Of a stretch of DNA of 64,000 nt, positions 14,761 through 51,848 are shown one piece after another. A program made the position numbers and the translations under genes. The first letter of the stretch is position 1. Each line of letters starts with the position of its first letter. The notes below the pieces were generated by a model. That model searched no databases, was not told the DNA's origin, and saw only the letters and a list, made by a program, of their open reading frames with translations. This stretch comes from Geosiphon pyriformis uo1 (Eukaryota; Fungi; Glomeromycota), in the NCBI GenBank assembly GCA_016748015.1, contig JAAOMT010000134.1:936757-1000756 (forward strand), in the 5' to 3' direction.

Positions 14761-15740
14761 TGTTACCAGAGGTTTTTGGTCTCTTTTCTTAAATGTTGTC
14801 AATGCTTGTTTGCTGTGAATTCACGTTTTCTGGATGTGGTTGAACCTCCAATAACTGAATTTATCTTCAAATTATCTCCTATAATTTGAATTGCTGGGCT
14901 TATAAGTAGAATGGCCAATTCCATGCCAGTTACTTTATGTAGTTACATTGTAGTAAATGTCAACTCTTTTCCAGGAATTGCTTGTCTGGAAGCTCACTAA
15001 AATGTATAATCACTTTGCTGTAAAAGTCAACTCTTCTTCAGAAATCTTGTCTGTAGACTACCCTAATGATTATAGTAAAAAAATAAAAAAGAAAATGAAA
15101 AGATGTAAAAGAAATGGAATTCTGTCAAGAGAAACGTTTTCAATCCAGGCCTGAAGTCACTAACAAATTATTGAAATTGGTAGCTAATCAATTTCAAAAC
15201 GTTAGTTGGGTTTTGGGAATTTTCCAAGTGCAATAATTAAAGAATTTGGTTTTTCGAATTATTTGATATTTATTTCTTTTTATATGTATAGGAATGGTTC
15301 TAAGTGATAAATCTAAAGTAAGATACATTTTCTCAAAGAGAGAAGCTCTTCTTTTATACAACTTGTCATAACACTATTCTATGAACTTGAACTTTGCTAT
15401 TTTCTACAATTTTGCTAAACTAAAGATACATTTCGGCGAACTACAAGTTATTTCTGCGAACTATTAGATATTTCGGTGAACTATCAATTATTTCAGCGAA
15501 TTTCTATAAATTTCAGCGAACTTTTGAATGTTACATAGTTTGGGGTATTGCATTATTGATCATCGTAATTAGGTTACATTTGTGTTGTGTACAATTTGGG
15601 TTATTAATTAAATGATAATTTCGGACATTTTTTTGCTAATGTAATAAGTGATAATTTGAACTGATAATATATGCTAATTAATGATAGAAATTATAAGATA
15701 GTTTCATGCTAAATAATATCTCTAATTTTGTTTGGTAACA
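14761..15740 (-). repeat. 3' LTR of A1
   Basis: TGTTACCA...TGGTAACA terminal inverted repeats; PPT GAGGAGGAGG on - strand at 15744-15753. Confidence 0.95.
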
Positions 15741-16428
15741 TAACCTCCTCCTCAAGATTGAGCTCCATCGAAGTCCAAGTACTGTTTGTTATTTCCAGAT
15801 AATAATCCAAAATTATTAAAGAAATTTGGTTTGAAAATTGTTGAAATTTCAGTTCTGTAAGCTTTCTAATGTATTGAATTTTCAAAGGTTGAAAAATTGG
15901 GTTTTGTAGTACGTTTTCACAGATGTGGAATAGGTCATAAAGTCTAAGAGCAGCTCTGAGCCTGTAGCGACTGTTTGTTGATCCAGCTGTTGTCTTGAAT
16001 TTGTTGTAGAGTTGTTTCTGAATAGCTTCTTTTGTGAGGTTTGCTGTTGTAAGTTCCAGTTTCCATTCATAGAGTGTTTTTCTAATGTGGAAATATCTAT
16101 AGATTGGAGGATATTCAGTGTTTTTCTCATTAAGACACAGTTGAAGTCTTTGTTGAATTGTAGCATTTAGTGGAATACTAATCGAAGTGAGCATTAAATT
16201 TTCTTTTAAAGCAAGCTTTAAAAGTTCTGGTAGGTGAATTCCAGTATAACTTCTTGTGTTCTTTTTATACAGGTGATATTTTTGTGAATTTGGGGCTAAA
16301 TTTGTAACTACTTCTGTTTAGATATAATTAATGTGGTTTCCAGTAACAATAATAGATAATTCAGGTATTGTTTTTAAAGTTAACATTAGTTTTTGGGATA
16401 ATTGTTGAATGTTTTGAGGAATAGTCAT
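15709..16428 (-). pseudogene. ORF3 (orphan 3' ORF) of A1, 240 codons, one internal stop
   Basis: MTIPQNIQQLSQKL...YRYFHIRKTLYEW...RAALRLYDLF...; reads through the PPT into the LTR; conserved in A2. Confidence 0.8.
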
Positions 16429-16549
16429 TATAAGCAATTTGAAATAAAAGAAAATTATTTTTGGTACATGGGTTTTTATGTTATTTTTGTTTTGTTTTTG
16501 TGAGATTGTTTCTAAATTATAAGAAAATAACTATAATAATAAATTTAAA

Positions 16550-17935
16550 TTAAGTGTTCAAGTTGGGAGGCTGTTCAATGACAACTATTGGTTCTAAATT
16601 TCAGGAAATATCTTCGGGATTGATTAAAGATGAATGTGTATCAATTTGTGAAATTAATGGTTCAGGATTGTTTCTGAAATTATAGTGTTTCAAATGATCT
16701 TCATGTGCAACTTTTGCTAGAATTTTGTCATCAAGTCTTAGCTTGTATAATCTGTTGCCTAAAACTTCATGGATAAAGAATGGTCCATCTCATTTATTTT
16801 CAAATTTCCTACTCCATTGTTTTTCAGCTTTAGTTCTGTGTAAGAGAACTTTGTTTCCGATTTTAAATTTATTGGTGACTGGAGGCAATTTGTCATCATG
16901 CCGTTCTTTTTGTCGAGCTTGGGAGTTTTCAATATAAGTGGCTGCTATTCGTCGTTTTCCTTTCAACATGCTAAGCAGAGTGTAAGCTCTTCATTAAAGT
17001 GTTTCCTGAAAATCATTTTTATTGATTAGTTGTGCTGGGTATGTTTCTACTGTGAACTTAATTGGTAGTGTTGCTGTCCTTCTGTAAGTTAAATCAAATG
17101 GTTTGTGTTTTGTGGTATCTTGTTTTAGTGTTCTATATGCTAATAACACTGATGGAATAAAGATATCTTATTCTTGCTCAAAATCAGTTAAAACTTTGGC
17201 TAATGACTCACACAATGTTCTGTTAAAACGTTCCATAAGTTTGTTTGTTTGTGGATGGTAAGGCGAAGACAGAGGTCTTTTGACATTGAATTGTTCGCAA
17301 ATTTCTTGTATTAGGTTGTTCACAAAATGTGTCCCTTAATTAGATAAAAGTTCAATTAGACATCTGTGTCTACAAATAATGTCTTCGTAGATAAAATTTG
17401 CTACTGATTTCACATCTACTTGTTGAATGGCTCTGGCTTCGGGCCATTTAGTAAGATAGTCTACAGCTACTGCAATATAACGGTTTCCTTGAGTGGTGAT
17501 AGATAATGGTCTGACTAAATCGATACCAACTCGGTCAAAAGGTTGTCCAACTTTAATTAGATTTAATGATTCAGTAGGGCGTGTTTCTCCTCTTCTTTGA
17601 CAACTATTACAAGATTCGACATATTCATGAATGTCTTTCCTCATTTGAGGCCAAAAGTAGTATTCTAGTGTTCTTTGGGTGGTGCTATCTTTTCTGAAGT
17701 GTACTGATAAAGGATCTGAGTGCATGTTGTATAATATGGTCTCTTTTTCTTGTTCTTGTATTAATCTAAGTGGTTTGTCTGGGTTTTTGAAATTTCAATG
17801 ATAAATAATGTTGTTGTATAGAAAATATTGTTTGGCTTGTTGTTGTAGTCAATGTTTTTCATCTGGAGACTAATCTGTTGGGATTGTTAATGTTTCCAAA
17901 TATTGTTTAAAATTGTTGTAGTTTTCTGAATTCAT
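16550..17935 (-). pseudogene. Stand-alone integrase ORF of A1
   Basis: ATG at 17935 (MNSENYNNFKQYL); HHCC, DDE core, DGPF; 462-codon span. Confidence 0.93.
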
Positions 17936-17984
17936 TGTTTGTTGGCTCTTTTGGTTAGTTAAGTTGAGTGTTGGTTTTTGTTTT

Positions 17985-20900
17985 CTAATCTTGTCTCATT
18001 CTGGAAAGACAGTCAACATTGGTGTGGAGTTTTCCTGGTTTGTGATGTACTATGTATCAATAGTTTGCTAGAAATCCTGTCCATCGGGTTTGTTTTGCAT
18101 TCAGCTGAGTATTTTTGTTTTGAAGCCATTTGAGTCCAATATTATCAGTGATAATATCAAATTCTTTAGGCCTGAGATAAAGGTTGAAGTGATATAGGGC
18201 CCAAATTACGGCTGCTGTTTCTAGTTCTATGGCAGGGTAGTTTTTCTCAGCTGGTTTTAATGTTCTGCTAGCATAAGCAATTACTCGCTTATTTCCGTTG
18301 TCATCTAGTTGTAATAAGATGGCACCAAAGGCAGTATGTGAAGCATCTGTAGCTAGTCGAAATTGGTTGCTGAAATCTGGGTAGGCGAGAATTGGAGCTG
18401 TTGTCAGTTTTTCCTTGAGAATTTCAAAAGCTTTTTGGTGTTCGGTAGTCCATTTGTATTCAACATTTTTGGTGGTGAGCTGGTTGAGGGGTTTTGCAAT
18501 TTCCGAGAATCCTTTGATAAACTTCCGATAGTAGGATGCTAATCCTATGAATTCTCTTAGTTCTGTAGTATTTTGTGGAACTTTGAAGTTCTTAACAGCA
18601 CTGATTTTTTCTGGATCTGGTTTGACTCCTTCTTCACTAACTATGTGACCAAAAAAGGCCAAACTTGTTTTTCCAAAATGGCATTTCTTAATGTTTAGTT
18701 TTAATCCTGCTTTATGTAATCATTGAAAAACTTCTTACAGGTGAAATAAATGAAGTTCGAAAGATGGGGAATAAACATCAGTGTCATCAAGATAGACAAC
18801 TACTGATTTCCAAAGGAGTCCAGCATATACAACATCCATGAGTCTTTGGAATGTTGCTGGCGCATTGTATAATCCAAAGAGCATTACATTGAATTCGTAG
18901 TTTCCTTCTTGTGTTGTGAATGCTGTTTTGGGGTGGTCCTTGGGATTCATGGCAACTTGCCAGTATCCGCTTTCTAGGTCTAATGTTGAATAGTATTTAG
19001 ATTTTCCAAGGGCATCTAACATGTCATCAATTTGTGGAAGAGGGTAAGCATCTCCAATGGTGATACTGTTGAGTTGTCAATATTCAACACAAAATCATAT
19101 CTTTCTATTCTTCTTTTTAACTAGGACTACTGGTGAGGCCCATAGACTCATTAATGGTTGGATAAGCCCATTGTTAAACATCTGTTGTACTTCTTCTTGG
19201 ATAAATTGGTGGCTTTCTGGAGCAACTCGGTAGGCTTGTTGTCACCTTGGTTTGGCATCTCCTGTATAGATTTGGTGTTGCATCAAATCGGTTCTTCCTA
19301 AGTCATTGTTGTTTTCAGCAAAGATATCAGCAAAATCTGCAATTAGTTTCTTGAGCTGGTTTTGTTGTTGTAGTTCAAGTTGTCCCATGTTGATTTGAGA
19401 TAGTTTTTCCATAACAATATGGTAGTTTTTGGAGCTGGAGTTTGGGTTGATTTTTGGTAGTGAATGTCCAATAATTTCAGAAAAATTGGGGACTGTTTGG
19501 GGTAATTCTTGTTGAAAGATGTTACTGTGAATGATTCCAATTTCTAAGTTATTTAATAAAACTATGGGATAATTGTTGGGATTGTAAAAAGTAATTTGGA
19601 CTTTCTTTGTTCCTTCTGGAATATAAATGTTTGGGATCAAGATATTATGTTTCAAGCAGATTTGTTTATTTGATTCAAAAATTTGTTGTGTGGTTGTTGG
19701 CTTTTCACAAATGTAAATTTCAGGGTATTCTCCAAAGGGTGAAATGGTAATTGGTTGTGGAAGTTGTAAAATCTGGTGAGATTTTTTCTGTTCATTAAGA
19801 GCTATGTTTACTGGAACTGTGAAACGTTCAGTTGAACCAAAACCTTGTGTTTCTCTTTCACTTTTTCCCAACTGTTTTCTTTGATTAACTAATTGTAAAC
19901 CCGAAATGTTGATTAAGGGTAAATAGATAGCTTAAGCAATTTTTTCAGCATATCCAATTTTGAAAGGTTTATCAGTTTCATTTTGTAACATGACTGTGAT
20001 GTCTCCTGTGTATTCAGCATTGATGATTCCTCCTCTAACATTGATTCCTTTGCTTGCCAAGGATGATTAGAAAGCAATTTGAACCATTGCTCCTGGTGGG
20101 ATTTCGAGGGCAATTTTAAGGTTGATTTTTGTAAGAAATTTGGGTTTGAGAGTAAGAGTATCTTTTCCTGGATATCTTAGATCATATCCAGCATCAATCT
20201 TGTGGGCTTTTTTTGGTTTTATTCCTTGTCCATTGTTGTTGAAATATTTGAGTTGTAAAGCAGGCTGATTTTTGATGAAATAGGTGGGTGTTGTCTCAAT
20301 TTCTTCTGTCACTTCAAGTTTTCTAAATTCAATTTTGTATTCATCATTTTTGCTGGACAAGGGAATGCTAAGAGCGTAGCATTCAGGACACCACTGTTCA
20401 TCACAAAGCATAATGCATTCTTCACATAGCCTAATGTTCATTTGCTCTAATCATTGAATTTGAGCTTCTTGGATTGGATAGGTGTGACTTGCAATTTGGT
20501 GGTAGACTTCTACTTTGTCTTCATAATCAAATTCAGCTAATTCCATGGTGTATTCAATGTATTCTGCTTCCTTCATTTGATGAACATCTTTTTTGGTAGC
20601 TCCATTAATTAATGCCATTGCTAGGTCAAAAATTATTTTGGCATTATGGGGGTAGTGATAAAGTTTGTTGAGAGCACTATTGTATACTGCATTAAAGAGT
20701 GTTCCTCTTTTTACTTTTTCTGAAATTAATAAAGCATATTGGCAGGTCTGATCGCAGACTCCTCCTCTCATGACTACATCAATCCAATTGCATTCTTTTG
20801 GTAGCATATCTCCACAAGTCAAACAAGAGGTGTTGTCCTATTTTTCACTCCTTTTTATTAGATGGTCCCATCATTCTCTGTGGCAAGTCTTGCAGTAATA

Positions 20901-23606
20901 ACAAGTATGATTTTCATATTCTTCTTTAGGTGAAATGCAGGCTCCCATTGATGATAGTTTCTTGTGGCAGTCCTTACATTTAAGGTGAATATAGGGGTGT
21001 TGTTTCCTTGGTTCAGGTTTTGAGTAAGAGATATTCCATCCAGAGGTTTTGGGTTCAGATTGTGGAGTAAAATGTTCTTGTTCTGTTTCATTGGCCTAGT
21101 TGGATGTTGATCCAAGAGCCATGAATGTTTCAATGAGAGGTTTTTCCTCTTCTGGTTCGAATTCAAAAGCTGGGGCTTTTTCAAAGCGTTTGTTAAATGT
21201 ACCACAAGTGGCAGGTACCCAGGCATATTGTTCTTGATAGAAGATTGTTAACTCTTGTGTTTCTCAATTCAGATTAGCATTGGCTTTTTGAAGCCAATCA
21301 TTTCTGACAAAAGCTTGGTACTGGGGTGCATCCATTACAAGAACTTTGACTGGAATGGTGATTCCATCAAGAGTGAATGGAAAATTGTTAATTTCTCCTA
21401 CTGAGGTCTTTTTCATGCCATCGGCAGTGACAATTACTGTTTGAGCTGGTCGGTCAACATTTCTTTTCAACTGTTGCATTAACTGGTAGGTAATAATGCT
21501 TCTGGTGGATCCACTGTCTAGGATCAAGCAAATTGTCTTTCCTTCGACTTCGGCTTTAGTATACATGGCTGTGATTGCTTTTTGTTCATTGGCAGCTGCA
21601 TTGCTAAGCAGAAATGGTGACTCATTTGCTTCGAACTCAAAAGGGAATATATCTGAAAGGTTAGTGTTTTTAGCAATTCTGGCTGGTGGAATTGTGGTGG
21701 GAGTATAGGAAGGATTTTGTTGTTGTTGTGCTGCAGCTCTACCTTCCAAGAGTGCAGTATGGTGAAAATTCTGTTCTTCCAGCATTGTTAAATAACTGGG
21801 TTGAGTGTGGTAGTGGTTGGATCTTGGTTGAGTGGTATTTTAGGGAACCAATTGGTTGTTCAAACTGATTCTATTGTTGTTTACTTGGTATTAGTTTTGT
21901 GGTGTGAATTGATTTTGTGTAAGCAGTCTTCGAGCAGGTACTTGATAATGTTGTGTGAGCAGTTGTTGATATTGCTGTGGGATTGGCTGTGAGGTGGACT
22001 GATAATAGTTATTTTGGTATTGGGGTTTTGGTGGATAGTAAGCTGGTGGTGGCGGTTGATAATAAAATTGCTGTGGTTGAGGGTAACGTTGATTACTCCT
22101 ATTTTGTTGGTCTCATTGTAGCTTTTTGCAATCTCTTTTCCAGTGGCCAGAGATTCTACAGTAATGGCAACTCTGAGGCTGGTTATTGGAAAGTGGTGCA
22201 AAGTTATTTTGATTTCGTCTTTGGGGTGGTTGATATCTTTGGGGTTGCTGTTGTTGTTGATTGGTGAAATAGTTTTCAACCTTCTTTGTGAATTGGTCAA
22301 TTTTTTCTTCAGCTGCTGAGCTGGTTTCTCCAATTGCCAAATTTACAAGTTTTGTGCGATTGGCCTCTTCTATGGCCATTTCGTATCTTTTTGCATACTG
22401 TATGGCAGAGTTTAAATCTTCTGGCACATGTGAGCAAACTTTTTTAATTAGTTTATCTTTTAGACCAGTGATAAATTGATCCAAGATTTGAGCATCAGAA
22501 TAATAATCGTTTGTTTTGAGTTGGCGAATTTGTCTAAGAAGTTTGTTGAATTTTTCAATATAAGTTATAACAGATTCGGAGAGTTCTTGTTTGATATTTC
22601 GAAAACAATTATGAAGGGTGATAGAGATATTATTGTTAGTGAACTGTTCAAGAAAGGCTGCTTTGAAAGCATTCCAATCATTGAATGGAGTGGCCAAGTT
22701 TTCAAACCATTCTCCTGCTGTTCTTTTGAGAAAGTAGGGAATTGTTTTTAACATTCTTTCAGCATTCCATCCATTTGCATCTCCAGCTTTAGTAACTTGG
22801 TCGAGCCATTCTTGGGAACTGGTTTCAATATCTTCTCCATTGAATTCAGGGATTTTTGTGATGTATGTTGTCATTTTGTCTTCTTCCTTTTCACTGTCTA
22901 TTGATTCTTCTTCAGTTATTTCAGAGTTGTTTTCTTCATTTGCTGTTGTCTCAGAGTGTTTACTTTAATTTTCAGCTAGAAAATCAAGGAGATTAGAACT
23001 AGTTTAAAGGAGTTCTTGTTGTCTGATGGAACTTCTGAGTGCTGTAAAATCTTCTGGTCTTGCAAATTGATTCAAGGGTGAATTAGGTGTTTGTGCTTAT
23101 GCAAGTAAAGCTGGAAAAGGTGTGATAGTAAGTGGAAGTTTTGAACTGGTTCCTTGTTCAGGTGTTTGTAAATGGTTGGCAGTTGTTTTTGGTAGTATTG
23201 GAGTATTTGGGGTGGTTCTTGAGTATTGCTTCAATTTGTTTTTGCCTTTGTTGTTTGTTTCTGTTTCCAATTCAAAATCAATAGTGTATTGAGACTGCAC
23301 TGGATATGTTTCTTCACAGTATTTGATAATGTTAAAATTAAGTTCGTGAAAGTAAGTGGCAAGTGTTTTACTGTTAAGGTCTTCAGTTCCCAACTGTGAA
23401 TAGTGTGCTAAATTATTGTAAAAGTTGCTTCTAACTTCTGAGATATTGTAATTTCCAAAAAGATAATTGTTGATGCGGTTTTCAATGTATTGGTATACTG
23501 ATTTCTTGACAACTTCAATTCCATCTGGAATGTTGAATTTTTGCTTGCAGTGGGTGTAAATTGACTGGTAATACTTTAGAGTTGTTGTGTCTGGTGTGGT
23601 CATCAC
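17985..23606 (-). pseudogene. Single-frame gag-pol of A1 (extension, capsid, CCHC, PR, Cys-rich, dUTPase, RT, RNase H)
   Basis: 5622 nt = 1874 codons from GTG at 23606 to TAG; CHYCRISGHWKRDC; LILDSGS; YLDD; LATDASH; ends DCLSRMRQD*. Confidence 0.93.
19830..20225 (-). pseudogene. dUTPase domain in A1 pol
   Basis: DAGYDLRY, SSLASKG, GIINAEYTGD, EKIA, RETQGFGST. Confidence 0.92.
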
Positions 23607-23637
23607 TTTGAAGTTGTTTTTGCTGTGTTGTTTTTGT

Positions 23638-23649
23638 GGGAGAGCACCA
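23638..23649 (-). promoter_or_regulatory. Primer-binding site, A1
   Basis: LTR end + TT + TGGTGCTCTCCC; A2 has TGGTGCTCTCTC at 37552-37563. Confidence 0.75.
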
Positions 23650-23651
23650 AA

Positions 23652-24631
23652 TATTACCAGAGGTTTTTGGTCTCTTTTCTTAAATGTTGTCAATGCTTGT
23701 TTGCTGTGAATTCACGTTTTCTGGATGTGGTTGAACCTCCAATAACTGAATTTATCTTCAAATTATCTCCTATAATTTGAATTGCTGGGCTTATAAGTGG
23801 AATGGCCAATTCTGTGCCAGTTATTTTATGTAGTTATGTTGTAGTAAATGTCAACTCTTTCCCAGGAATTGCTTGTCTGGAAGCTCACTAAAATGTATAG
23901 TTACTTTGCTGTGAAAGTCAAATCTTCTTCAGAAATCTTGTCTGTAGGCTACCCTAATAATTATAATAAGAAAATAAAAAAGAAAATGAAAAGATGTAAA
24001 AGAAATAGAATTCTGTCAAGGGAAACGTTTTCAATCTAGGTCTGGAGTCACTAACAAATTATTGAAATTGGTAGCTAATCAATTTCAAAATGTTAGTTGG
24101 ATTTTGGGGATTTTCTAAGTACAATAATTAAAGAATTTGGTTTTTCAAATTATTTGATATTTATTTTTTTTTGTGTGTGTAGGAATGGTTCTAAGTGATA
24201 AATCTAAAGTAAGATACATTTTCTCGAAAAGAGAAGCTCTTCTTTTATACAACTTGTCATAACACTATTTTATGAACTTAAACTTTGCTATTTTCTACAA
24301 TTTTGCTGAACTAAAGATACATTTCGGCAAACTACAAGTTATTTCTGTAAACTATTAGATATTTCAGTAAACTATCAATTATTTCGGCAAATTTCTATAA
24401 ATTTCAGTGAACTTTTGAATGTTACATAGTTCAGGATATTGCATGATTGATCATCGCAATTAGGTTACATTTGTGTTGTGTACAATTTGGGTTATTAATT
24501 AAATGATAATTTTGGACATTTTTTTGCTAATGTAATAAGTAATAATTTGAACCAATAATATATGCTAATTAATGATAGGAATTATAAGATAGTTTCATGC
24601 TAAATAATATCTCTAATTTCGCCTGGTAACA
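23652..24631 (-). repeat. 5' LTR of A1
   Basis: Pairs with 14761-15740; ends TGGTAACA. Confidence 0.95.
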
Positions 24632-24937
24632 GTAGGTAATAGGGAATTATTGTTGCATATACCTTTCAATGGTTTGATTGATTTCCCTAATGATTGTAAA
24701 ACTGTAGTTTCTTGATAAACTGGTATGTTGAAATAATTCTGTATAGAAGTTTTCTCTTGCAGATTCAATGTTAATTGTTCCTTCTAAGCAGTCTGTGATT
24801 TTATCATTGACATAGAAATTAAAGACTGATTCCACTGGGAAATAATTATTGTTTAATCCTAATTGTTGGCTGTACTGTTGAAACAAGAATTTGGCAAATT
24901 CTAAATGGTTTGTCCCTATGATTTCTGATTCTGCCAC
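24632..24937 (-). pseudogene. 5' end of B1 gag (N-terminal extension)
   Basis: AAAAGTGGCA start, (V)AESEIIGTNHL...; continues at 14760 across the A1 TSD. Confidence 0.8.
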
Positions 24938-28678: not shown

Positions 28679-29658
28679 TGTTACCGGAGGTTTTTGGTCT
28701 CTTTTCTGTAATGTTATTGATACTTATTTGCTGTGAATTCACGTTTTCTGGATGTGGTTGAACCTTCAGTAACTGAATTTATCTTCAAATTATCTTCTAT
28801 AATTTGAACTGCTGGGCTTATAAGTAGAATAGCCAATTCCTTGTCAGTTATTTTATGTAGTTACATTGTAGTAAACGTCAACTCTTTCCCAGGAATTGCT
28901 CGTCTGGAAGCTCACTAAAATGTATAGTTACTTTGCTGTGAAAGTCAACTCTTCTACAGGAATCTTGTCTGTTGGCTACCCTAATGATTGTAATAAGAAA
29001 ATAAAAGAAAAATAAAAGAAATGTAAAAAAAATAGGATCTTATCAAGGGAAACGTTTTCTATTCAGACCTGGAGTCACTAACAGTTTACTGAAATTGGTA
29101 GCTAATCAATTTCGAAATGTTAGTTGAGTTTTGGGGATTTTCCAAGTACAATAATTTAGAGAATTTGGTTTTTCGAATTATTTGATATTTATTTCTTTTT
29201 GTGTGTATAAAAATGGTTTGTAAAAGATAAATCTAAAGTAAGATACATTTTTTTGAAGAGAGAAGCTTTTCTTTTATACAACTTGTCATAACACTATTCT
29301 ATGAACTTGAACTTTGCTATTTTCTAAAATTTTGCTGAACTAAAGATACATTTCAGCAAATTACAAGTTATTTCAGTGAACTATTAGATATTTCGGTGAA
29401 CTATCAATTATTTCGGCGAATTTCTACAAATTTCAGCGAACTTCTGAATGTTACATAGTTTGGGGTATTGCATGATTGATCATCGCAATTAGGTTACATT
29501 TGTGTTGTGTACAATTTGGGTTATTAATTAAATGATAATTTCAGACATTTTTGCTAATGTAATAAGTGATCATTTGAAATGATAATATATGCTAATTAAT
29601 GATAGGAATTATAAGATAATTTCATGCTAAATAATATTTCTAATTTTGTCTGATAACA
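28679..29658 (-). repeat. 3' LTR of A2
   Basis: TGTTACCG...TGATAACA; PPT GAGGAGGAGG adjacent on - strand. Confidence 0.95.
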
Positions 29659-30347
29659 TAACCTCCTCCTCAAGACTGAGCTCCGTCGAAGTCCAAGTAC
29701 TGTCTGTTATTTCCAGATAATAATCCAAAATTATTGAAGAAATTTGGTTTGAAAATTGTTGAAATTTCAGTTCTGTGAGCTTTCCAATGTATTGAATCTT
29801 CAAAGATTAAAAAATTGGGTTTTGTAGTATGTTTTCACAGGTGTGAAATAGGTCATAAAGTCTAAGGGCAGCTCTAAGCCTGTAGCAACTGTTTGTTAAT
29901 CCAGTTGTTGTTTTGAATTTGTTGTGGAGTTGTTTTTGAATAGCCTCTTTTGTGAGGTTTGCTGTTGTAAGTTCCAGTTTCCATTCGTAGAGTGTTTTTC
30001 CTATGTGAAAATATCTATAGATTGGAGGATATTCAGTGTTTTCCTCATTGAGACACAGTTGAAGTTTTTGTTGAATTGTAGCATTTGGTGGAATACTAAT
30101 CAGAATGGGCATTAGGTTTTCTCTTAAAACAAGCTTTAAAAGTTCTGGTAGGTGAATTCTAGTATAACTTCTTGTGTTCTTTTTATACAGGTGATATTTT
30201 TGTGAATTTGGGGCTAAATTTGTAACTACTTCTGTTTGGGTATAATTAATGTAGTTTCCAGTAACAGTAATGGATAATTTGGGTATTTGTTTTTAAAGCT
30301 AACATTAGTTTTTGGGATAATTGTTGAATGTTTTAAGGAATAGTCAT
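29627..30347 (-). pseudogene. ORF3 of A2
   Basis: Homologue of 15709-16428 with a 1-nt frameshift and stops. Confidence 0.8.
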
Positions 30348-30465
30348 TATAAGCAATTTGAAATAAAAGAAAATTATTTTTTGGTGTATGGGTTTTTATG
30401 TTATTTTTTGTTTTGTTTTTGTGAGATTGTTTCTAAATTATAAGAAAATAACTAGTAAAATTAAA

Positions 30466-31851
30466 TTAAGTGTTCAGGTTAAAAGGTTGTTCAATGACAA
30501 CTATTGGTTCTAAGTTTTGGAGAATGTCTTCGGGACTGACCAAAGGGGAATGTGTACTGATTTGTGAAATTAATGGTTCAGGATTGTTTCTGAAATGATA
30601 GTGTTTCAAACGATCTCCATGTGCAACTTTTGCTAGGATTTTGTTATCAAGTCTTAGCTTGTATGATCCATTGCCTAGGACTTCATGGATAAAGAATGGT
30701 CCATCCTATTTATTTTCAAATTTTCCACTCCATTGTTTTTTAGCTTTAGTTCTGTGTAAGAGAACTTTGTTTCCAATTTTGAATTTATTGGTAACTGAAG
30801 GCAATTTGTCATCATGCTATTCTTTTTGTTGAGCTTGGGAGTGTTCAATATGGGTGACTGTTATTCATTGTTTTCTTTCCAATGTGCTAAGCAGAGTGTA
30901 GGCTCTTTGCTGAAGCATTTTTTGGAAATTGTTTTTATTGATCAGTTGTGCTGGGTATGTTTCCACTGTGAAACTAATTGGTAACGTTGCCGTCCTTCCA
31001 TAAGTTAAATCAAATGGTGTGTGTTTTGTGGTATCTTGTTTTAATGTCCTATATGCTAGTAACACTGATGGGATAAAGAGATCCCATTCTTGCTCAAAAT
31101 TAGTTGAGACTTTGGCTAATGACTCACACAATGTTCTGTTAAACCGTTCCACAAGTCCATTTGTTTGTGGATGGTAGGGCAAAGACAGAGGTCTTTTGAC
31201 ATTGAATCGTTCACAAATTTCTTGTATCAGGTTGTTCACAAAGTGTGTTCCCTGATCGGATAAAAGTTCAATTGGATATCCATGTCTACAAATAATGTCT
31301 TCGTAGATAAAATTTGCTACTGATTTTGCATCTGCTCGTTGAATGGCTCTGGCTTCAGGCCATTTAGTAAAATAGTCTACAGCTACTGCAATATAACAGT
31401 TTCCTTGAGTGGTAATAGATAGTGGTCCGACTAAATCGATACCAACTCTGTCAAAAGGCTGTCCAACTTTGATTGGATTTAAAGGTTCTGTAGGGTGAGT
31501 TCCTTCTCTTCTTTGACAAATATCACAAGATTCAACATATTTGTGAATGTCTTTTCTCATTTGAGGCCAAAAGTAGTATTCTATTGTTCTTTGGGTGGTG
31601 CTATCTTTTCCGAAGTGTGCTGATGAAAGATCTGAGTGCATATTGTATAAAATGGTCTCTTTTTCCTGTTCTTGTATTAATCTGAGTGGTTTGGTTGGGT
31701 TTTTGAAATTTTGATGATAGATAATATTGTTGTGTAGAAAATATTGTTTGGCTTGTTATTGTAACTAATGTTTTTTGTCTGGGGACCAATCTGTTGGGAT
31801 TGTTAATGTCTCCAAATATTGTTTGAGATTATTGTAGTTTTTGGGGTTCAT
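30466..31851 (-). pseudogene. Stand-alone integrase ORF of A2
   Basis: ATG at 31851 (MNPKNYNNLKQYL); MHSDLSSAHF..CDICQ; GIDLVGP; SDQGTHF; NGLVERFN; 462-codon span. Confidence 0.94.
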
Positions 31852-31899
31852 TGTTTGTTGTTTTGATGCTGTTAATTCAAATGGGTGTTGGTTTTGTTT

Positions 31900-34800
31900 C
31901 TAATCTTGCCTCATCCTTGAGAGACAATCAACGTTGGTGTGAAGTTTTCCTGGTTTGTGGTGTACGATGTATTGGTAATTAGCTAAAAATCCTGTCCATC
32001 AGGTTTGTTTTGCGTTCAGCTGGGTGTTTTTGTTTTGAAGCCATTTAAGTCCAATATTATCAGTGATAATATCAAATTCTTTGGGTCTGAGGTAAAGGTT
32101 GAAGTGATGTAGGGCCCAGATTACTGCTACAGTTTCTAATTCTGTTGTGGGGTAGTTCTTTTCAGCTGGCTTTAATGTTCTACTAGTATAAGCAATTACT
32201 CGCTCATTTCCATTGTCATCTAACTGTGATAGGATAGCACCAAAGGCAGTATAAGAAGCGTCAGTTGCTAACCAGAATCGGTTGCTGAAGTCTGAGTAGA
32301 TGAGGATTGGGGCTGTTGTGAGTTTTTCCTTGAGTATCTCAAAGGCATTTTGGTGTTCTTTTGTCCATTTGTATTCGACATTTTTCGTAGTGAGCTGGTT
32401 GAGGGTTTTTGCAATTTCTGAGAATTCTTTGATGAATTTTTGGTAATAGGATGCTAATCCAATAAATCCTCTTAATTCTGTGGTATTTCGTGGAGTCTTG
32501 AAGTTTTTGACAGTACTGATTTTTCCAGGGTCTGGTTTAATTCCATCTTTGCTAACAATGTGACCAAGAAAAGCTAAACTTGTCTTTCCAAAGTAGCATT
32601 TTTCAATGTTCAGTTTCAATCCTGCTTTCCGTAATCGTTGAAAAACTTCTCACAGGTGAATTAAATGTAGCTCAAAAGATGGTGAATAAACATCAGTGTC
32701 ATCAAGATAAACTACTACTGATTTCCAAAGGAGGCCTTTGTAAACAACATCCATGAGTCTTTGGAATGTTGCTGGTGCATTGCATAATCCGAAAGGCATT
32801 ACATTGAACTCGTAATTTTCTTTTTGAGTGGTGAATGCTGTTTTGGGGCAGTCTTTGAGATCCATAGCAACTTGCCAGTATTCACTCTCTAAATTTAATA
32901 TTGAAAAGTATTTGGACTTTTCAAGGGCATCCAACATGTCATCAATTTGGAGAAGAGGGTAGGCATCCCCAATGGTGACACTGTTGAGTTGTCAGTAATC
33001 AACACAAAAGCATATCTTTCCATTTTTTTTTTAACTAGAACCACAGGTGAGGCCCATGGGCTCATTGATGGTTGAATAAGCCTATTGTTAAGCATCCATT
33101 GTACTTCTTCTCGAATAAATTGGTGACTTTCTGGAGCAACTCGGTAGGCTTGTTGTCACCTGGGTTTGGCATCTCTTGTATAGATTTGGTGTTGAACCAA
33201 ATCAGTTCTTCCTAAGTCATTGTTGTTTTTGGCGAAGATATCAGCAAATTCTGCAATTAGTTCTTTGAGCTGGGTCTGTTGTTGTAGTTCAAGTTGTCCC
33301 ATGTTGATTCGAGATAGTTTTTTCATGACAACATGGTAGTTTTCAGAGCTAGGATTTGGGTTGATTTTCAGTAGTGAATGTCCAATAATTTCAGAGAAAT
33401 CGGAGACTGTTTGGGGTAATTTTTGTTGAAATATATTATTGTGAATAACTCCAATTTCTAAATTATTTAATAAAATTATGGGGTAATTATTGGGGTTGTA
33501 AAAAGTAACTCGGACTTTCTTTGTTCCTTCTGGAATATAAATGTTTGGGATCAAAATATTATGTTTCAAGCAGACTTGTTCATTGAACTCAAAAATTTGT
33601 TGTGTGGTTGTTGGCTTTGTGCAAGTGTAAATTTCTGGATGTTCTCCAAAGGGTGAGATGGTAATCGGTTGTGGAAGTCTGAGAATCTGGTGGGATTCGT
33701 TCTGTGTGTTAAGAGCTATATTAACTGGAACTGTGAATTGTCCAGTTGAACCAAAACCTTGGGTTTCTCTATCGCTTTTTCCTAATTGTTCTCTTTGATT
33801 GACTAGTTGCAAACCCGAAATGTTGATTAAGGGTAGGTAAATAGCTTGGGCAATTTTTTCAGCATGTTCAATCTTGAATGGTTTGTCAGTTTCATTTTAA
33901 AGCATTACTGTTATGTCTCCAGTATATCTAGCATCGATTATTCCTCCTCTGACATTGATTCCTTTGCTTGCCAGAGAGGACTGAGAGACGATTTGAACCA
34001 TTGCTCCTGGTGGGATTTCGAGTGCAATTTTGAGGTTGATTTTTGTGAGAGATTTGGGTTTGAGAACAAGAGTATCTTTGCCTGGATATCTTAGGTCATA
34101 TCCAGCATCAATTTCGTGTGCTTTTTCAGGTTTTATTCCTTGTCCATTGTTGTTGAAATATTTAAGTTGTAAGGCAGGCTAATTTTTGATAAGGTAGATG
34201 GGTGTTGTTTCAATTTCTTCTGTTTCTTCAGGTTCTCCAAATTCAATTTCATTCTCATCATTTTCGCTGGGCAAGGGGATACTAAGAGCATAGCATTCGG
34301 AACACCATTGTTCATTGCAAGGCATAATGCATTCTTCACATAGCCTAATGTTCATTTGCTCTAATCATTGAATTTGAGCTTCTTGGGTCGAGTAGGTGTG
34401 ACTTGCAATTTGGTGATAGACTTTTACTTCATCTTCGTAATCGAATCCAGCTAATTCCATAGTGTATTCAATGTATTCTGCTTCCTTCATTTGATGAACA
34501 TCTTCTTTGGTAGCTTCATTAATTAATGCCATTGCTAAGTCGAAAATCATCTCGGCATCATGAGGGTAGTGATAAAGTTTGTTGAAAGCACTGTTGTATG
34601 CTGCATTAAAGGGTGTTCCTCTTTTTACTTTTTCTGAAATTGATAAGGCATATTGGCAGGTCTGATCGCAGACGCCTTTTCTCATTGCTACATTAATTCA
34701 ATTGCATTCTTCTGGTAGCATATCTTCACAAGTCAAACAAGCAGTGTTGTCCCATTTTCTGCTTCTTTTTATTAGATGGCCCCATTACTCTCTGTGGCAA

Positions 34801-37520
34801 GCCTTGCAGTAATAACAAGTGTGATTCTCATATTCTTCTTCAGGTGAAATGCAGGCTCCCATTGATGATAGTTTCTTGTGGCAGTCCTTACATTTAAGGG
34901 GAATATAGGGGCGTTGTTTTCTTGGTTCAGATTTTGAGTAAAGTATATTCCATCCAGAGGTTTCAGGTTTAATGTGTATGGTAAAATGTTCTTGTTTTGT
35001 TTCATCAGCCCAGTTGGACGTTGATCCAAGAGCCATGAATGTTTCGATTATTGGTTTTTCTTCTTCTGGTTCAAATTCAAAAGCCGGGGCTTTTTCAGAG
35101 TGTTTGTTGAATGTACCACAAATGGCAGGTACCCGGGCGTGTTGTCCTTGGTAGGAGATTGTTAACTCTTGTGTTTCACAGTTCAGATTAGCATTGGCTT
35201 TTTGAAGCCAATCATTTCCGACAAGAGCTTGGTACTGGGGTGCATCCATTACAAGAACTTTGACTGGAATGGTGATTCCATCAAAAGTGAATGGAAAATT
35301 GTCAATTTCTCCTACTGGTGTCTTTTTCATGCCATCAGCAGTAACAATTACTGTTTGAGCCAGTCGGTCGATATTTCTTTTCAACTGTTGCATTAACTGG
35401 TAGGTAATAATGCTTCCAGCAGATCCACTGTCTAGGATCAAGCGAATTGGCTTTCCTTTTACTTCAGCTTCTGTGTACATTGTAGTGATGACTTTTTGCT
35501 TATTAGCCGCTGCATTGCTAAGCAAGAATGGTGATTCATTTGCTTCAAATTCAAAAGGAAAGATATCAGAAAAATTGGCGTTTTTAGCAATTTGGGCTGG
35601 TGAAATAGTAGTGTGATTATGAGAAGGGTTTTGTTGTTGTTGTGCTGCAGCTCTACCTTCCGAAAGTGCAGTATGGTGAAAATTCTGTTCTTCTGGCATT
35701 GTTAAATAACTGGGTTGAGTGTGGTAGTGGTTGGGTCTTGGTTGAGTGGAATTTTGGAGAACCAATTGGTTGTTTGGACTGATTCTATTGTTGTTTACTT
35801 GGTATTGGTTTTGTGGTGTGAATTGATTTTGTGTAATCAGTCTTCGAGTAGGTACTTGATAATGTTGTGTGGGTGGTTGTTGGTATTGCTGTTGGATTGG
35901 TTGTAGGGCAGGCTGATAATAGTTATTTTGGTATTGGGATCTTGGTGGATAGTAAGCTGGTGGTGATGGTTGATAATAAGATTGCTGTGGTGGAGAGTAA
36001 CATTGATTACCCCTGTTTTGTTGGTCTCGCTGTAGCTTTCTGCAATCTCTTTTCCAGTGGCCAGAGATTCCACAGTAATGGCAATTCTGGGGCTGGTTAT
36101 TTGAAAGTGGTGCAAAGTTATTTTGATTTTGTCTTTGGGGTGGTTGATATCTTTGAGGTTGTTGTTGTTGTTGGTTGGTAAAATAGTTTTCGACCTTCTT
36201 TGTGAGTTGGTCAATTTTTTTCTCAGCTGCTGAGCTGGTTTCTCCAATTGCCAAATTTACAAGTTTTGTACGATTAGCCTCTTCCATGGCCATTTCATAT
36301 CTTTTCACATGCTGGATGGCAGAGTTTAAATCTTCTGGCGTGTGTGGGCGAACCTTTTTAATTAGTTTATCTTTTAGACCAGCAATAAATTGATCCAAGA
36401 TTTGAGCATCAGAATAATAATTGTTTGTTTCGAGTTGGCGAATCCGTCTGAGAAGTTTGTTGAATTTCCCAATATAAGTCATAACGGATTCGAAAAGTTC
36501 TTGTTTGATATTTCGAAAACGATTGCAAAGAGTGATAGAGGTATTATTGTCGATGAACTGTTCAAGGAAGACTGCTTTGAAAGCATTTCAATCATTGAAT
36601 GGGGCGGCAAGGTTTTCAAACCATTCTTCTGCTGTGCCTTTGAGAAAGTAGGGAATTGTTCTTAACATTCTGGCAGTGTTCCATCCATTTGCATCTCCAG
36701 CTTTAGTAACTTGGTCGAGCCATTTTTGGGGACTGGTCTCAATATTTTCTCCATTGAATTCAGGGATTTTTGCAATGTATGTTGTCATTTTGTTTTCTTC
36801 ATTTTCACTGTCTATTGATTCTTCTTCAGTTATTTCAAAGTTGTTTTCTTCGTTTGCTGCTGTCTCAGAGTGTTCACTTTGATTTTCAGCTAGAAAATCA
36901 AGGAGATTGGAACTAGTTTGAAGGGGTTCTTGTTGTCTGGTGGGACTTCTGAGTGATGTAAAATCTTCTGGTCTTGCAAATCAATTCAAGAGTGAATTAG
37001 GTGTTTGTGCTTGTACAAGTGAGACTAAAAAAGGTGTGATAGTAAGTGGAAGTTTTGAACTGGTTCCTTGTTCAGGTGTTTGTAAATGTTTAGCAGTTGT
37101 TTTCGGTAGTGTTGGAGTATTTGGGGTGGTTCTTGAATATTGCTTTAATTTGTTTTTGCCTTTGTTGCTTGTTTCTGTTTCCAATTCAAAATCAATAGTG
37201 TATTGAGACTGCACTGGATATGTTTCTTCACAGTATTTAATAATGTTATAATTAAGTTCATGAAAGTAAGTGGCAAGTGTTTTACTATTAAGGTCTTTAG
37301 TTCCCAACTGTGAATAGTGTGCTAAATTATTGTAAAGGTTGCTTCTAACTTCTGAGATATTGTAATTTCCAAAAAGATAATTGTTGATGCGGTTTTCAAT
37401 GTATTAGTATACTGATTTCTTGACAATTTCAATTCCGTCTGGAATGTTGAATCTTTGCTTGCAGTGGGTGTAAATTAATTGGTAATACTCTAGAGTTGTT
37501 GTATCTGGTGTGGTCGCCAC
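31900..37520 (-). pseudogene. gag-pol of A2
   Basis: 565-aa open stretch joins capsid, CCHC and protease in frame; dUTPase, RT (YLDD), RNase H; one 1-nt deletion in a poly-A run at ~33025. Confidence 0.94.
33741..34140 (-). pseudogene. dUTPase domain in A2 pol
   Basis: AHEIDAGYDLRY, SQSSLASKG, GGIIDARYTGD, EKIAQAI, RETQGFGSTG. Confidence 0.94.
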
Positions 37521-37565
37521 TTTGAAGTTGTTTTTGCTGTGTTGTTTCTGTGAGAGAGCACCAAA

Positions 37566-38306
37566 TGTTACCGGAGGTTTTTGGTCTCTTTTCTGTAATG
37601 TTGTTGATACTTATTTGCTGTGAATTCACGTTTTCTGGATGTGGTTGAACCTCCAGTAACTGAATTTATCTTCAAATTATCTCCTATAATTTGAACTGCT
37701 GGGCTTATAAGTGGAATGGCCAATTCCTTGCCAGTTACTTTATGTAGTTACGTTGTAGTAAACGTCAACTCTTTCCCAGGAATTGCTTGTCTGGAAGCTC
37801 ACTAAAATGTATAGTTACTTTGCTGTGAAAGTCAANNNNNNNNNNNNNNNNNNNNNNNNNNNNNNNNNNNNNNNNNNNNNNNNNNNNNNNNNNNNNNNNN
37901 NNNNNNNNNNNNNNNNNNNNNNNNNNNNNNNNNNNNNNNNNNNNNNNNNNCATCTTGAACTTTGCTATTTTCTAAAATTTTGCTGAACTAAAGATACATT
38001 TCGGCAAATTACAAGTTATTTTGGCGAACTATTAGATATTTCGGTGAACTATCAATTATTTCAGCGAATTTCTACAAATTTCGGCGAACTTCTGAATGTT
38101 ACATAGTTCGGGGTATTGCATGATTGATCATCGCAATTAGGTTACATTTGTGTTGTGTACAATTTGGGTTATTAATTAAATGATAATTTCGGACATTTTT
38201 GCTAATGTAATAAGTGATCATTTAAAATGATAATATATGCTAATTAATGATAGAAATTATAAGATAATTTCATGTTAAATAATATTTCTAATTTTGTCTG
38301 GTAACA
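37566..38306 (-). repeat. 5' LTR of A2 (contains N gap 37836-37950)
   Basis: TGTTACCG...TGGTAACA; pairs with 28679-29658. Confidence 0.93.
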
Positions 38307-47957: not shown

Positions 47958-49784
47958 TCATGCCCCTCCCAAGATTATCCTTCGATTCACACTCTTAGCT
48001 TCCAAATTAGATCGGGTATCAACAACATTTTCCATACTGGTCACGGCGATAACTTTTGCTTCATCAGATCGAACTATCGAATTCAAATATTCCACTTGTA
48101 AGCATCTCTCGGCCAATCTCTGAGTGGTCGAAGATACTGGTTTGAAATGCTTGGAATTTGCACCAGTAAAATCAACCAGGAGGCTATATATCTGATGCTG
48201 TTTGTATCGTAGCCTACAAAGCTGGGTATTTTTTAGTAAAGGATGCAGGACCCTGAGATAGGTATGCCGAATCTGTTTTAACAATACCACACAAATTGTT
48301 AAATAAGATATTATCAGAAAAACTAGGCAACCCATTAATAATAAAAAAGATAAAGCTGACCGCTTCGCTCTCTTCAGGCAAATTATATAGCTCTCTAATA
48401 AATACATCGACCAAGACCATCAAATCATTTGTGTAGAAATATTCAAAAGTCTCTGGACTCGTGAAAATTTGAAAGAGCAGTTTGAGTGTGAGCATCTGTA
48501 TATGTGGTTCAACTTGAATCGTAAAAAATTGGTTTAAATTTAAGTTAGCAATGGTGAAGAGAACGATGAAATGACGAAATATCCTCAATTAATTTGATAC
48601 CGCATCGATTTAACATAAAGATCACATTTTCTCCAAAAGTTTTGCTAGAGCCGATACGAGCCCCAAGAACATTTAGCACACTATTAGTAATATAGTTGTC
48701 GTCATTTTCAACACCAGTTCCAGATTGGTTTTTGAGTTGAGACTTATTAGCTAACATAAATTGTTCGTTGAATGATAGCTAGTTTGAAAAGAAACAAAGT
48801 GAATTAATATTCTAGATAGTTCCTAATTAGTATGCAATATTATATTAAAAATAAACCCACTAAAAGTTTGATTATCGAATAATTATATGTCTCATCTTGT
48901 TCATCTCTAGTTTTCTCAACCAAATCGAGCAAATAATTAATAAGTGGCTCATCAATCATGCCTGAAGATTATTGGAATAAAATTTGAATATTGAATAAGA
49001 TCAATCGGTTGAATAAAGTTCGTAAGTTTCATGAGATAGCCAAAATTAACTTGACATACATAAATCGCATTCTGAGAGCTTTTGTATACAACAAATTTCA
49101 AAGAGTAGCTTTATGGAAATTCGCTGTACTTTATTTCCTAATATATAATAAATAGAAATCCCCTGAAATTTAATGCATCTAAATATAGGATGAAATAATC
49201 GAATCGAATGACGAATACCTTCTAGTTCCCAAATATGCTGGATCAATTTCCCAAATAATTCATGTTTTTTTCTGCTGATCATCAACTTGAATATTTTGAG
49301 GTTTTCTTTACCAGCTAAAAGGAGCATATGGTATGTTACCCATAATTCTGGCAAATCCTCTCGTCTAGCAGCTCGGTCTATTAAACGTTCCAGTATGGTT
49401 TCTGAATATTCTTCGTACATGTGAGAGTCCAGTAGCTTATAACAGCAAGTAGCTAACTCAGATTCTGTTTCAAAATATTCATCTGCAATGAAAGGAACTT
49501 TAGCTAGCCCTGATAAATTATGAACCTAACATTAGATTACAATAATTTGTATTCACCTTGAAATTTAGTTAGAAACCCTACATAAACGTCCAAAGAAGCC
49601 TTTGCAGCTTCCTTATTTAGTTCCCCTCGAACGAGAATATCTTCAAGTTCTGGGAAAGAGAAACACAGGTTTGAAAAGATGAAGATTGGGTTTTCCACTG
49701 GTTAAACGTATGTTTTCGAAAAACAAACATACCGGCCCAAAATTGTTGTGAGTTTTCAAGGTGATAAATTATCAGGTCGTCCAT
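47958..49784 (-). CDS. LDB17: SPIN90/Ldb17/Dip1-family Arp2/3 activator, multi-exon
   Basis: [17 protein letters not shown] start; LSFNEQFM; [13 protein letters not shown]; [17 protein letters not shown]; [12 protein letters not shown]. Confidence 0.9.
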
Positions 49785-49937
49785 ATTGTCAAGAAATTAT
49801 GACGAAGGTAAAAGATATGATGCCAGCAGTTCACCAATATGAGATAATCCACTAATCTAGTTTAGTGGGCTCTGTATGTGTCAAATTCACGACCTAAATT
49901 AGGCCAACATGTGCGTCNNNNNNNNNNNNNNNNNNNN

Positions 49938-51848
49938 TTAGATCGGGTATCAACAACATTTTCCATACTGGTCACGGCGATAACTTTTGCTTCATCAGAT
50001 CGAACTATCGAATTCAAATATTCCACTTGTAAGCATCTCTCGGCCAATCTCTGAGTGGTCGAAGATACTGGTTTGAAATGCTTGGAATTTGCACCAGTAA
50101 AATCAACCAGGAGGCTATATATCTGATGCTGTTTGTATCGTAGCCTACAAAGCTGGGTATTTTTTAGTAAAGGATGCAGGACCCTGAGATAGGTATGCCG
50201 AATCTGTTTTAACAATACCACACAAATTGTTAAATAAGATATTATCAGAAAAACTAGGCAACCCATTAATAATAAAAAAGATAAAGCTGACCGCTTCGCT
50301 CTCTTCAGGCAAATTATATAGCTCTCTAATAAATACATCGACCAAGACCATCAAATCATTTGTGTAGAAATATTCAAAAGTCTCTGGACTCGTGAAAATT
50401 TGAAAGAGCAGTTTGAGTGTGAGCATCTGTATATGTGGTTCAACTTGAATCGTAAAAAATTGGTTTAAATTTAAGTTAGCAATGGTGAAGAGAACGATGA
50501 AATGACGAAATATCCTCAATTAATTTGATACCGCATCGATTTAACATAAAGATCACATTTTCTCCAAAAGTTTTGCTAGAGCCGATACGAGCCCCAAGAA
50601 CATTTAGCACACTATTAGTAATATAGTTGTCGTCATTTTCAACACCAGTTCCAGATTGGTTTTTGAGTTGAGACTTATTAGCTAACATAAATTGTTCGTT
50701 GAATGATAGCTAGTTTGAAAAGAAACAAAGTGAATTAATATTCTAGATAGTTCCTAATTAGTATGCAATATTATATTAAAAATAAACCCACTAAAAGTTT
50801 GATTATCGAATAATTATATGTCTCATCTTGTTCATCTCTAGTTTTCTCAACCAAATCGAGCAAATAATTAATAAGTGGCTCATCAATCATGCCTGAAGAT
50901 TATTGGAATAAAATTTGAATATTGAATAAGATCAATCGGTTGAATAAAGTTCGTAAGTTTCATGAGATAGCCAAAATTAACTTGACATACATAAATCGCA
51001 TTCTGAGAGCTTTTGTATACAACAAATTTCAAAGAGTAGCTTTATGGAAATTCGCTGTACTTTATTTCCTAATATATAATAAATAGAAATCCCCTGAAAT
51101 TTAATGCATCTAAATATAGGATGAAATAATCGAATCGAATGACGAATACCTTCTAGTTCCCAAATATGCTGGATCAATTTCCCAAATAATTCATGTTTTT
51201 TTCTGCTGATCATCAACTTGAATATTTTGAGGTTTTCTTTACCAGCTAAAAGGAGCATATGGTATGTTACCCATAATTCTGGCAAATCCTCTCGTCTAGC
51301 AGCTCGGTCTATTAAACGTTCCAGTATGGTTTCTGAATATTCTTCGTACATGTGAGAGTCCAGTAGCTTATAACAGCAAGTAGCTAACTCAGATTCTGTT
51401 TCAAAATATTCATCTGCAATGAAAGGAACTTTAGCTAGCCCTGATAAATTATGAACCTAACATTAGATTACAATAATTTGTATTCACCTTGAAATTTAGT
51501 TAGAAACCCTACATAAACGTCCAAAGAAGCCTTTGCAGCTTCCTTATTTAGTTCCCCTCGAACGAGAATATCTTCAAGTTCTGGGAAAGAGAAACACAGG
51601 TTTGAAAAGATGAAGATTGGGTTTTCCACTGGTTAAACGTATGTTTTCGAAAAACAAACATACCGGCCCAAAATTGTTGTGAGTTTTCAAGGTGATAAAT
51701 TATCAGGTCGTCCATATTGTCAAGAAATTATGACGAAGGTAAAAGATATGATGCCAGCAGTTCACCAATATGAGATAATCCACTAATCTAGTTTAGTGGG
51801 CTCTGTATGTGTCAAATTCACGACCTAAATTAGGCCAACATGTGCGTC
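49938..51848. other. Duplicate of 48007-49917 (3'-truncated LDB17 copy, ATG at 51715 on -) after a 20-N gap; probable assembly artefact
   Basis: Constant offset of 1931 nt, no differences seen, both copies abut the gap 49918-49937. Confidence 0.9.

Follow-up and report, generated by a model that had tools for sequence, protein, structure and literature searches.

A 64,000-nt stretch of the Geosiphon pyriformis uo1 genome (GenBank assembly GCA_016748015.1, contig JAAOMT010000134.1, positions 936,757 to 1,000,756 of the forward strand; hereafter the window) carries three copies of Ty3/gypsy-type retrotransposons with long terminal repeats (LTRs), two of one family (A1 and A2) and one of a sister family (B1), in which the integrase gene stands apart from the rest of Pol, behind a stop codon and a non-coding spacer. 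Judged from the sequences, the arrangement is a variation on the known Ty3/gypsy elements that differs from them in its unfused Pol, and the same gene order was observed in related soil-metagenome loci, where a stop precedes integrase at 59 of 59 readable junctions. The reading preferred here, to which we assign a probability of about 0.5, is that integrase would form a separate cistron behind Gag, protease (PR), dUTPase, reverse transcriptase (RT) and RNase H, and would be translated from the full-length RNA by termination-coupled reinitiation.

Junctions between RNase H and integrase in the window

The window is AT-rich and eukaryotic, and all of its element copies lie on the minus strand. 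In A2 the frame leading from Gag to RNase H ends with LSRMRQD and a TAG at 31902-31900, four codons past the LSR motif, which is followed by a spacer of 48 nt (31852-31899), A/C-rich and predicted to be unstructured, and by an integrase open reading frame (ORF; 30466-31851) with its ATG at 31851-31849. This ORF encodes an H2C2 zinc finger, an rve core and an SH3-like domain, begins with a Met that is conserved in the clade and holds five in-frame decay stops. A1 likewise ends with LSRMRQD and a TAG (17987-17985) at the position seen in A2, and continues with a spacer of 49 nt (17936-17984) and a decayed integrase ORF (16550-17935) with its ATG at 17935-17933. In B1 the sequence LLQMRQI is closed by a TAA at 7982-7980, four codons past the LLQ equivalent of LSR, and the spacer of 31 nt (7949-7979) leads to a decayed integrase ORF (6566-7948; ATG at 7948-7946), the product of which is 53% identical to the A2 integrase. 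The spacers end in CAAACA before the ATG of A1 and A2 and in CAAAAA in B1; their composition is A27 C13 T6 G2 in A2, A29 C14 T4 G2 in A1 and A20 C7 T4 G0 in B1, none of them contains an ATG, and their predicted folding energies range from 0 to -0.4 kcal/mol. Only in A2 does integrase share the frame of the upstream ORF; in A1 and B1 it is shifted to the +1 frame. Differential divergence was also observed along the junction, as the A1 and A2 spacers are 68.5% identical (37 of 54 columns) against 87.3% and 89.0% in the adjoining 300 nt on each side, and 11 of the 12 gap columns in the 6.5-kb internal alignment of the two copies fall within the spacer. An earlier note on this DNA had described these three stops, spacers and spacer ends, the change of phase and the faster divergence of the spacer, all of which were recovered here.

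The split in related loci and the decay of the window copies

A protein search with the A2 RT-RNase H-integrase as query, its stops being read as X, returned among the best 120 matches mostly stand-alone proteins with integrase domains only, about 400-450 amino acids in length and 44-53% identical to the query; four of the matches are named as Rhizophagus irregularis (Glomeromycotina) and many derive from metagenomes. In alignment, 12 of 13 stand-alone integrase proteins begin at the column of the window ATGs, and the thirteenth (P0063) has a Met in that column preceded by an extension of 33 amino acids. A scan with these 13 proteins yielded 80 loci from metagenome contigs, 58 of them with an integrase ORF of at least 380 amino acids. 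An ATG was found at the aligned first integrase residue in all 65 loci where that residue was matched; in 61 of the 65 no other ATG intervenes between it and a preceding in-frame stop, and a stop in the integrase frame lies upstream of it in 63, at a median distance of 18 nt. Among the 61 loci with at least 300 nt of upstream sequence, 59 contain an upstream ORF of at least 80 codons, closed ahead of the integrase start or slightly past it, two (L022 and L032) have no such ORF, and none shows a fusion of RNase H to integrase. The upstream ORFs reach at least 400 codons in 28 cases and at least 1000 codons in six, and the four long ones that were scanned with Pfam contain PR, RT and RNase H throughout and a zinc knuckle in two, the longest of the four being 1311 amino acids with an open 5' end. 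The stop falls 1-22 codons past an ADALSR-type motif in 36 loci; the upstream ORF extends 171-344 amino acids beyond the motif in nine loci, and in the available stretch of the remaining loci the motif was not found.

The phase, the type of stop codon and the start context were counted in the 47 loci with an integrase of at least 380 amino acids. The variable phase that had been noted in the window recurs there, since the spacer lengths modulo 3 are about equally represented (13/17/17), and all three stop codons close the Pol ORF (TAA in 28 loci, TAG in 11 and TGA in eight). At 39 of the 47 junctions the ORFs are separated by spacers of 2-365 nt and at eight they overlap, with stop-start overlaps of the ATGA type in L025, L059, L060 and L079 and of the TAATG type in L046, and L027 has a gap of 2 nt between the Pol stop and the integrase start. 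The varied phases and overlaps rule out recoding at a fixed phase, and the 2-nt gap and the overlaps rule out an intron as a general explanation. Readthrough or frameshifting that restores an RNase H-integrase fusion could be suggested by A2, where integrase shares the frame of the lone TAG and no further stop follows in the spacer, but A1 and B1 are out of frame, in-frame junctions occur at chance level (13 of 47), integrase-frame stops stand upstream of the ATG in nearly all loci as given above, the spacers freely gain and lose bases, and the conserved Met would be needless in a fusion; we consider it very improbable. The view of the earlier note that the stop is neither a product of decay nor a site of readthrough is strongly supported by the uniform presence of stop and Met and by the use of every phase and stop codon.

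A tree of integrase sequences, 50 rows of them split and 19 fused, requires 3 changes of state against 16.9 in shuffles, and one group of 49 rows takes in 48 of the split rows, with families A and B as sisters inside it (support 100). As the compared sequences stand, the split is ancestral in the clade. At identities of at least 44%, the longer proteins are the metagenome protein P0002 or fungal gene models and nothing else. RNase H and integrase are joined in the public gene models P0122, P0004 and P0003, which come from Rhizophagus clarus and Cetraspora pellucida. Both P0122 and P0004 omit the conserved ADALSR end of RNase H together with the N-terminus of integrase, and the joins in these models are probably annotation artefacts in which predicted introns were drawn across the split.

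The window copies A1, A2 and B1 are dead relics. A1 and A2 contain many in-frame stops that are derived by transition from CGA, CAA, CAG and TGG codons, and 746 of the 878 substitutions between them (15580-23921 against 29500-37835) are transitions. Eight stop positions are common to both copies, five of the eight with a different stop codon, a pattern suggesting that Arg CGA and Trp TGG codons were hit repeatedly; decay through cytosine methylation or a process resembling repeat-induced point mutation would be expected to give the same. A2 has in addition a 1-nt deletion in RT at 33028, and B1 an insertion of about 860 bp at about 8013-8872, 30 nt before its Pol stop. This insert contains tandem copies of a palindromic unit of about 20 nt and may be a small non-autonomous element. 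An alternative genetic code with TAA and TAG read as Gln was considered for the stops and rejected, as they are copy-specific, arise by transition from the four codons named and include TGA, and the relatives are clean under the standard code.

Further copies of family A were sampled through contigs of a public DNA run containing this stretch, in which the family is very high-copy (2875 contig pieces aligned to 701 nt). Two stops private to A2 are sense codons in many copies, with A>G making up 176,186 of a depth of 181,113 at 31758 and 44,844 of 90,164 at 32001, and the codon 31767-31765 is variable at all three positions. No alternative letter reached 2% of the depth at the Pol stop (31900-31902), where 57 pieces lie at the junction and only some span the stop, such that the absence of a variant from the list is not proof of constancy; loose contig ends at the junction retain TAG, or in one case TAA. 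Small indels at 31866-31868 and 31896-31897 make the spacer length vary within the family. Mutational decay as the origin of the stop would suit the heavily decayed window copies with their excess of transitions and many CGA>TGA and TGG>TAG or TGA stops, and an Ogre-like splice joining RNase H to integrase would suit gene models such as P0122 and P0004 with their predicted introns. Decay is nevertheless refuted as a general explanation by the stops at every readable junction, many with intact ORFs on both sides, and the Pol stop shows no listed variant among the family contigs, unlike the decay stops; 2-nt spacers and overlaps are too small for an intron, the integrase Met is conserved, and the loss of the ADALSR end from the two gene models looks like an artefact. 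Decay or a splice of this kind is, on balance, scarcely credible.

Spacers and the start of integrase translation

A strong depletion of ATG was observed in the spacers, as 32 spacers of 10-150 nt (2203 nt in total) contain 5 ATG, where composition-preserving shuffles gave 31.3 ± 5.2 and not one of 5000 came out as low, and control stretches of equal length past the integrase stop contain 29 against 30.5 expected. The purge starts at the Pol stop, because the final 390 nt of the Pol ORF still carry 1.7-4.5 ATG per 100 nt. At the integrase start, position -3 is A in 33 of 47 loci and position +4 is G in 38 of them, the latter possibly a by-product of a conserved Asp or Glu as second residue. 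From the start context and a purge that begins at the stop we infer that 40S subunits would move along the RNA from the Pol stop until they reach the AUG of integrase. Under termination-coupled reinitiation, translation would terminate at the Pol stop and a fraction of the 40S subunits would remain on the RNA, scan the AUG-free and unstructured spacer and restart at the integrase AUG, which lies in a good context; the output of integrase would then be below that of Gag-RT, and integrase would reach the particle or the cDNA without a Gag-Pol fusion. Such untethered packaging, which the earlier note had also proposed, would follow logically from the separate-gene arrangement.

The spacers of some relatives carry further elements. 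In one subclade (14 loci aligned, such as L023:3936-4006 and L033:1105-1175) a conserved element lies 4-35 nt before the integrase AUG; it forms a hairpin in which 8 of the 13 predicted pairs show compensatory changes, and an invariant stretch rich in purines stands ahead of it. The hairpin has no Rfam match and is absent from the window copies. A segment directly ahead of the ATG in the spacers of one subclade has only moderate conservation, and its alignment revealed no clear structure. An Rfam scan of ten related loci gave no match in a spacer, its sole row being a sub-threshold match to a miRNA family elsewhere in L072. The loci L023, L031, L033, L035, L039, L050, L068 and L071, which have Pol extensions of 171-344 amino acids, all belong to the hairpin-bearing group, and the C-terminal stretch of 345 amino acids of the L035 Pol ORF matches no Pfam family at E<=0.01.

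Integrase might instead be translated from its own subgenomic mRNA, produced from an internal promoter or with a 5' leader spliced near the Pol stop, in the manner in which retroviruses and errantiviruses express env, and the spacer would then be the 5' leader. The elements of the subclade spacers, the hairpin with its compensated pairs and the segment before the ATG, could be promoter, splice or binding signals, and the element must express a third ORF (ORF3) too. In those relatives with a 2-nt spacer or ATGA and TAATG overlaps, however, no space is left past the Pol stop for a start site or an acceptor, an RNA that began further upstream would carry the ATG density of the Pol end before the integrase AUG, and the hairpin is limited to one subclade and does not occur in the window. 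We regard the subgenomic mRNA as the main, though less probable, alternative. Reinitiation or a subgenomic RNA had been named side by side in the earlier note, and both remain the two leading mechanisms; the sharp-edged ATG-free spacers and the overlaps in relatives lean towards reinitiation, the choice between the two being one that we infer. Internal ribosome entry at the spacer, independent of Pol translation and in the manner of an IRES (internal ribosome entry site), would fit the subclade with its conserved structured element, but the spacers of the window and many others are short and unstructured, a purge of ATG over the whole spacer from the stop onward points to linear scanning, and the spacers match no Rfam family; this route appears improbable.

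Downstream of integrase, ORF3 of about 130-230 amino acids was found in at least 15 loci (such as L002:2284-2715), at gaps of -38 to 167 nt. The decayed ORF3 of A2 (29659-30347) has its ATG at 30347 and reaches the polypurine tract beside the 3' LTR, and that of A1 (15745-16428) has its ATG at 16428 and its LEEEV end over the polypurine tract. Twelve gaps between integrase and ORF3 (1150 nt) contain 3 ATG against 13.8 ± 3.4 expected, a deficit that is partly due to how the ORF3 start was chosen. The predicted structure of ORF3 is all-helical and confident (predicted local distance difference test score, pLDDT, 92.8), and a Foldseek search of this model against PDB and viral structures found no match at E<=0.001. 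A Pfam scan of ORF3 and of stretches termed 'ORF4', about 1 kb past integrase in several loci, gave none at E<=0.01 and a single row for GMT-wHTH at E=0.099. 'ORF4' was rejected as a separate gene and is most likely the N-terminus of Gag, reached through an assembly-collapsed LTR; the Gag leader of A2 holds a Cys-x2-x-Tyr-Pro stretch that resembles it. Carried further, the fungal and soil Ty3/gypsy clade might be truly polycistronic, with Gag-to-RNase H, integrase and the helical ORF3 translated from one RNA in a caulimovirus-like relay of serial restarts behind very long ORFs, ORF3 or the subclade hairpin retaining the ribosomes, and integrase left untethered; we regard this wider proposal as rather unlikely.

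Several observations weigh against integrase as a separately reinitiated cistron. According to the available portion of PMC5972666, eukaryotic ribosomes very rarely reinitiate behind a long ORF and depend on special signals to do so. The upstream ORF here has at least 1300 codons, many spacers measure 60-160 nt and exceed those of the classic stop-restart cases, and only 3 of 36 loci have the calicivirus-type UGGGA motif (TGGGA in the DNA) in the 100 nt upstream of their Pol stop, with none in the last 100 nt before the A2 stop. Were a subgenomic or spliced mRNA to start at the Pol stop, its 5' leader would equally be expected to lack ATG and to present the AUG in a good context. As for the split itself, similarity to stand-alone integrases was the criterion by which the loci were selected; they sample the split clade and show it to be uniform rather than showing every relative to be split. 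Two fused proteins also lie beside split rows of the tree, P0123 (a Rhizophagus irregularis gene model) nested beside L061, and P0002, a continuous metagenome ORF of 1023 amino acids, paired with L077, the upstream ORF of which stops early within RNase H.

Element structure, known systems and significance

Self-comparison of the window revealed A1 and A2 as two full copies of one LTR retrotransposon family, which are 89.4% identical to each other. The LTRs of family A start with TGTTAC and end with GTAACA (TG...CA). In A2 the 5' LTR (37566-38306) and the 3' LTR (28679-29658) are 96.6-96.7% identical, and an assembly gap of 115 N (37836-37950) replaces in the 5' LTR about 360 nt that are found in the 3' LTR; the LTRs of A1 lie at about 14761-15740 and 23650-24633. 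The target duplications are of 4 bp, GCAC at A2 and CTAC at A1, a primer-binding site beginning with TGG lies 2 nt past the LTR, and the polypurine tract GAGGAGGAGG immediately precedes the 3' LTR. The decayed Gag-PR-dUTPase-RT-RNase H frame of A2 (31900-37400, the upper limit being approximate) shares one frame among its Pfam matches to Retrotrans_gag (41.3 bits), zf-CCHC (18.8 bits, under the Pfam cut-off), the aspartyl protease, dUTPase (78 bits), RVT_1 (99 bits) and RT_RNaseH (112 bits), and Integrase_H2C2 (66 bits), rve (51 bits) and the SH3-like domain follow downstream of RNase H. The dUTPase match lies at 33741-34130, between protease and RT, and a cysteine-rich stretch was seen between protease and dUTPase. 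The LTRs with their target duplication, the primer-binding site and polypurine tract, and the order Gag-PR-RT-RNase H-integrase are those of Ty3/gypsy elements; the usual, though not strictly defining, integrase at the C-terminus of Pol is replaced by the stop and spacer. B1 occupies about 6.5-13 kb of the window. Apart from the elements, the minus strand at 47958-50519 was seen to be duplicated in tandem, the period being about 1.9 kb, and to contain a fragment of a SPIN90/Ldb17 leucine-rich domain gene (Pfam 67.7 bits).

Compared with the canonical Ty3/gypsy elements (Metaviridae) such as Ty3 and Tf1, the present elements have in common the TG...CA LTRs, the 4-bp duplication, the primer-binding site, the polypurine tract, the zinc-knuckle Gag and the order of PR, RT, RNase H and integrase, and Tf1 also carries Gag to RNase H in one frame. 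They differ in having an integrase with its own ATG outside the Pol polyprotein, a dUTPase between PR and RT, and ORF3 after integrase. Foamy viruses make Pol independently of Gag, from a spliced mRNA, with integrase still within Pol, and DIRS and Ngaro elements carry the integrating enzyme in an ORF apart from RT, that enzyme being a tyrosine recombinase and not a DDE integrase; the likeness lies in a replication enzyme untethered to Gag in the former and in an integrating enzyme apart from RT in the latter. LINE-1, a non-LTR element with a different enzyme, is not known to require an AUG to start ORF2, whereas the integrase AUG is strictly conserved here. Its bicistronic RNA with ORF1, a spacer and ORF2, from which the downstream enzyme is made far less (available text of PMC4091050), is matched by the two non-overlapping ORFs here. 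The Caulimoviridae, plant pararetroviruses related to Ty3/gypsy that translate a polycistronic RNA by reinitiating behind long ORFs, are described in the accessible parts of PMC5902531 and PMC5972666 as stringing their ORFs along one long RNA, with short gaps or ATGA-type overlaps between them, and a similar chain of Gag-Pol, integrase and ORF3 with ATG-poor gaps is present here, assuming a single RNA; they use a viral transactivator and lack integrase and LTRs, whereas no transactivator homologue was found here, ORF3 having no match in Pfam and no fold match among PDB and viral structures. Translation that resumes on or close to the stop of a long ORF is likewise reported, in the portions available of PMC2699510 and PMC5972666, for the UAAUG of the fungal hypovirus CHV1 and for the termination upstream ribosome-binding site (TURBS) systems of caliciviruses and influenza B, to which the ATGA and TAATG overlaps of some relatives may be compared; restart so near the stop would concern only some relatives, whereas the window copies have spacers of 31-49 nt without overlap, and UGGGA is not enriched. 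A survey of fungal Gypsy elements mentions, in its accessible part, one or two ORFs, dUTPase and additional ORFs (PMC2864245). A literature search, with subscription journals and Repbase outside its scope, turned up no account of Ty3/gypsy elements in which integrase forms its own cistron.

For annotation, the stand-alone integrase genes recorded in the genomes of arbuscular-mycorrhizal fungi are probably parts of such elements, and models in which RNase H is spliced to integrase are probably in error; where a pipeline for transposable elements expects a fused Pol, it will wrongly score these elements as broken. In the general view, the enzymes of LTR retrotransposons and retroviruses enter the particle as Gag-Pol fusions, which fixes the ratio of enzyme to capsid. 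A large and long-lived clade in which RT is fused to Gag and integrase is separate would break this rule for integrase, and it raises the questions of how a fungus translates a cistron that lies downstream of an ORF exceeding 1300 codons and how an untethered integrase finds the cDNA.

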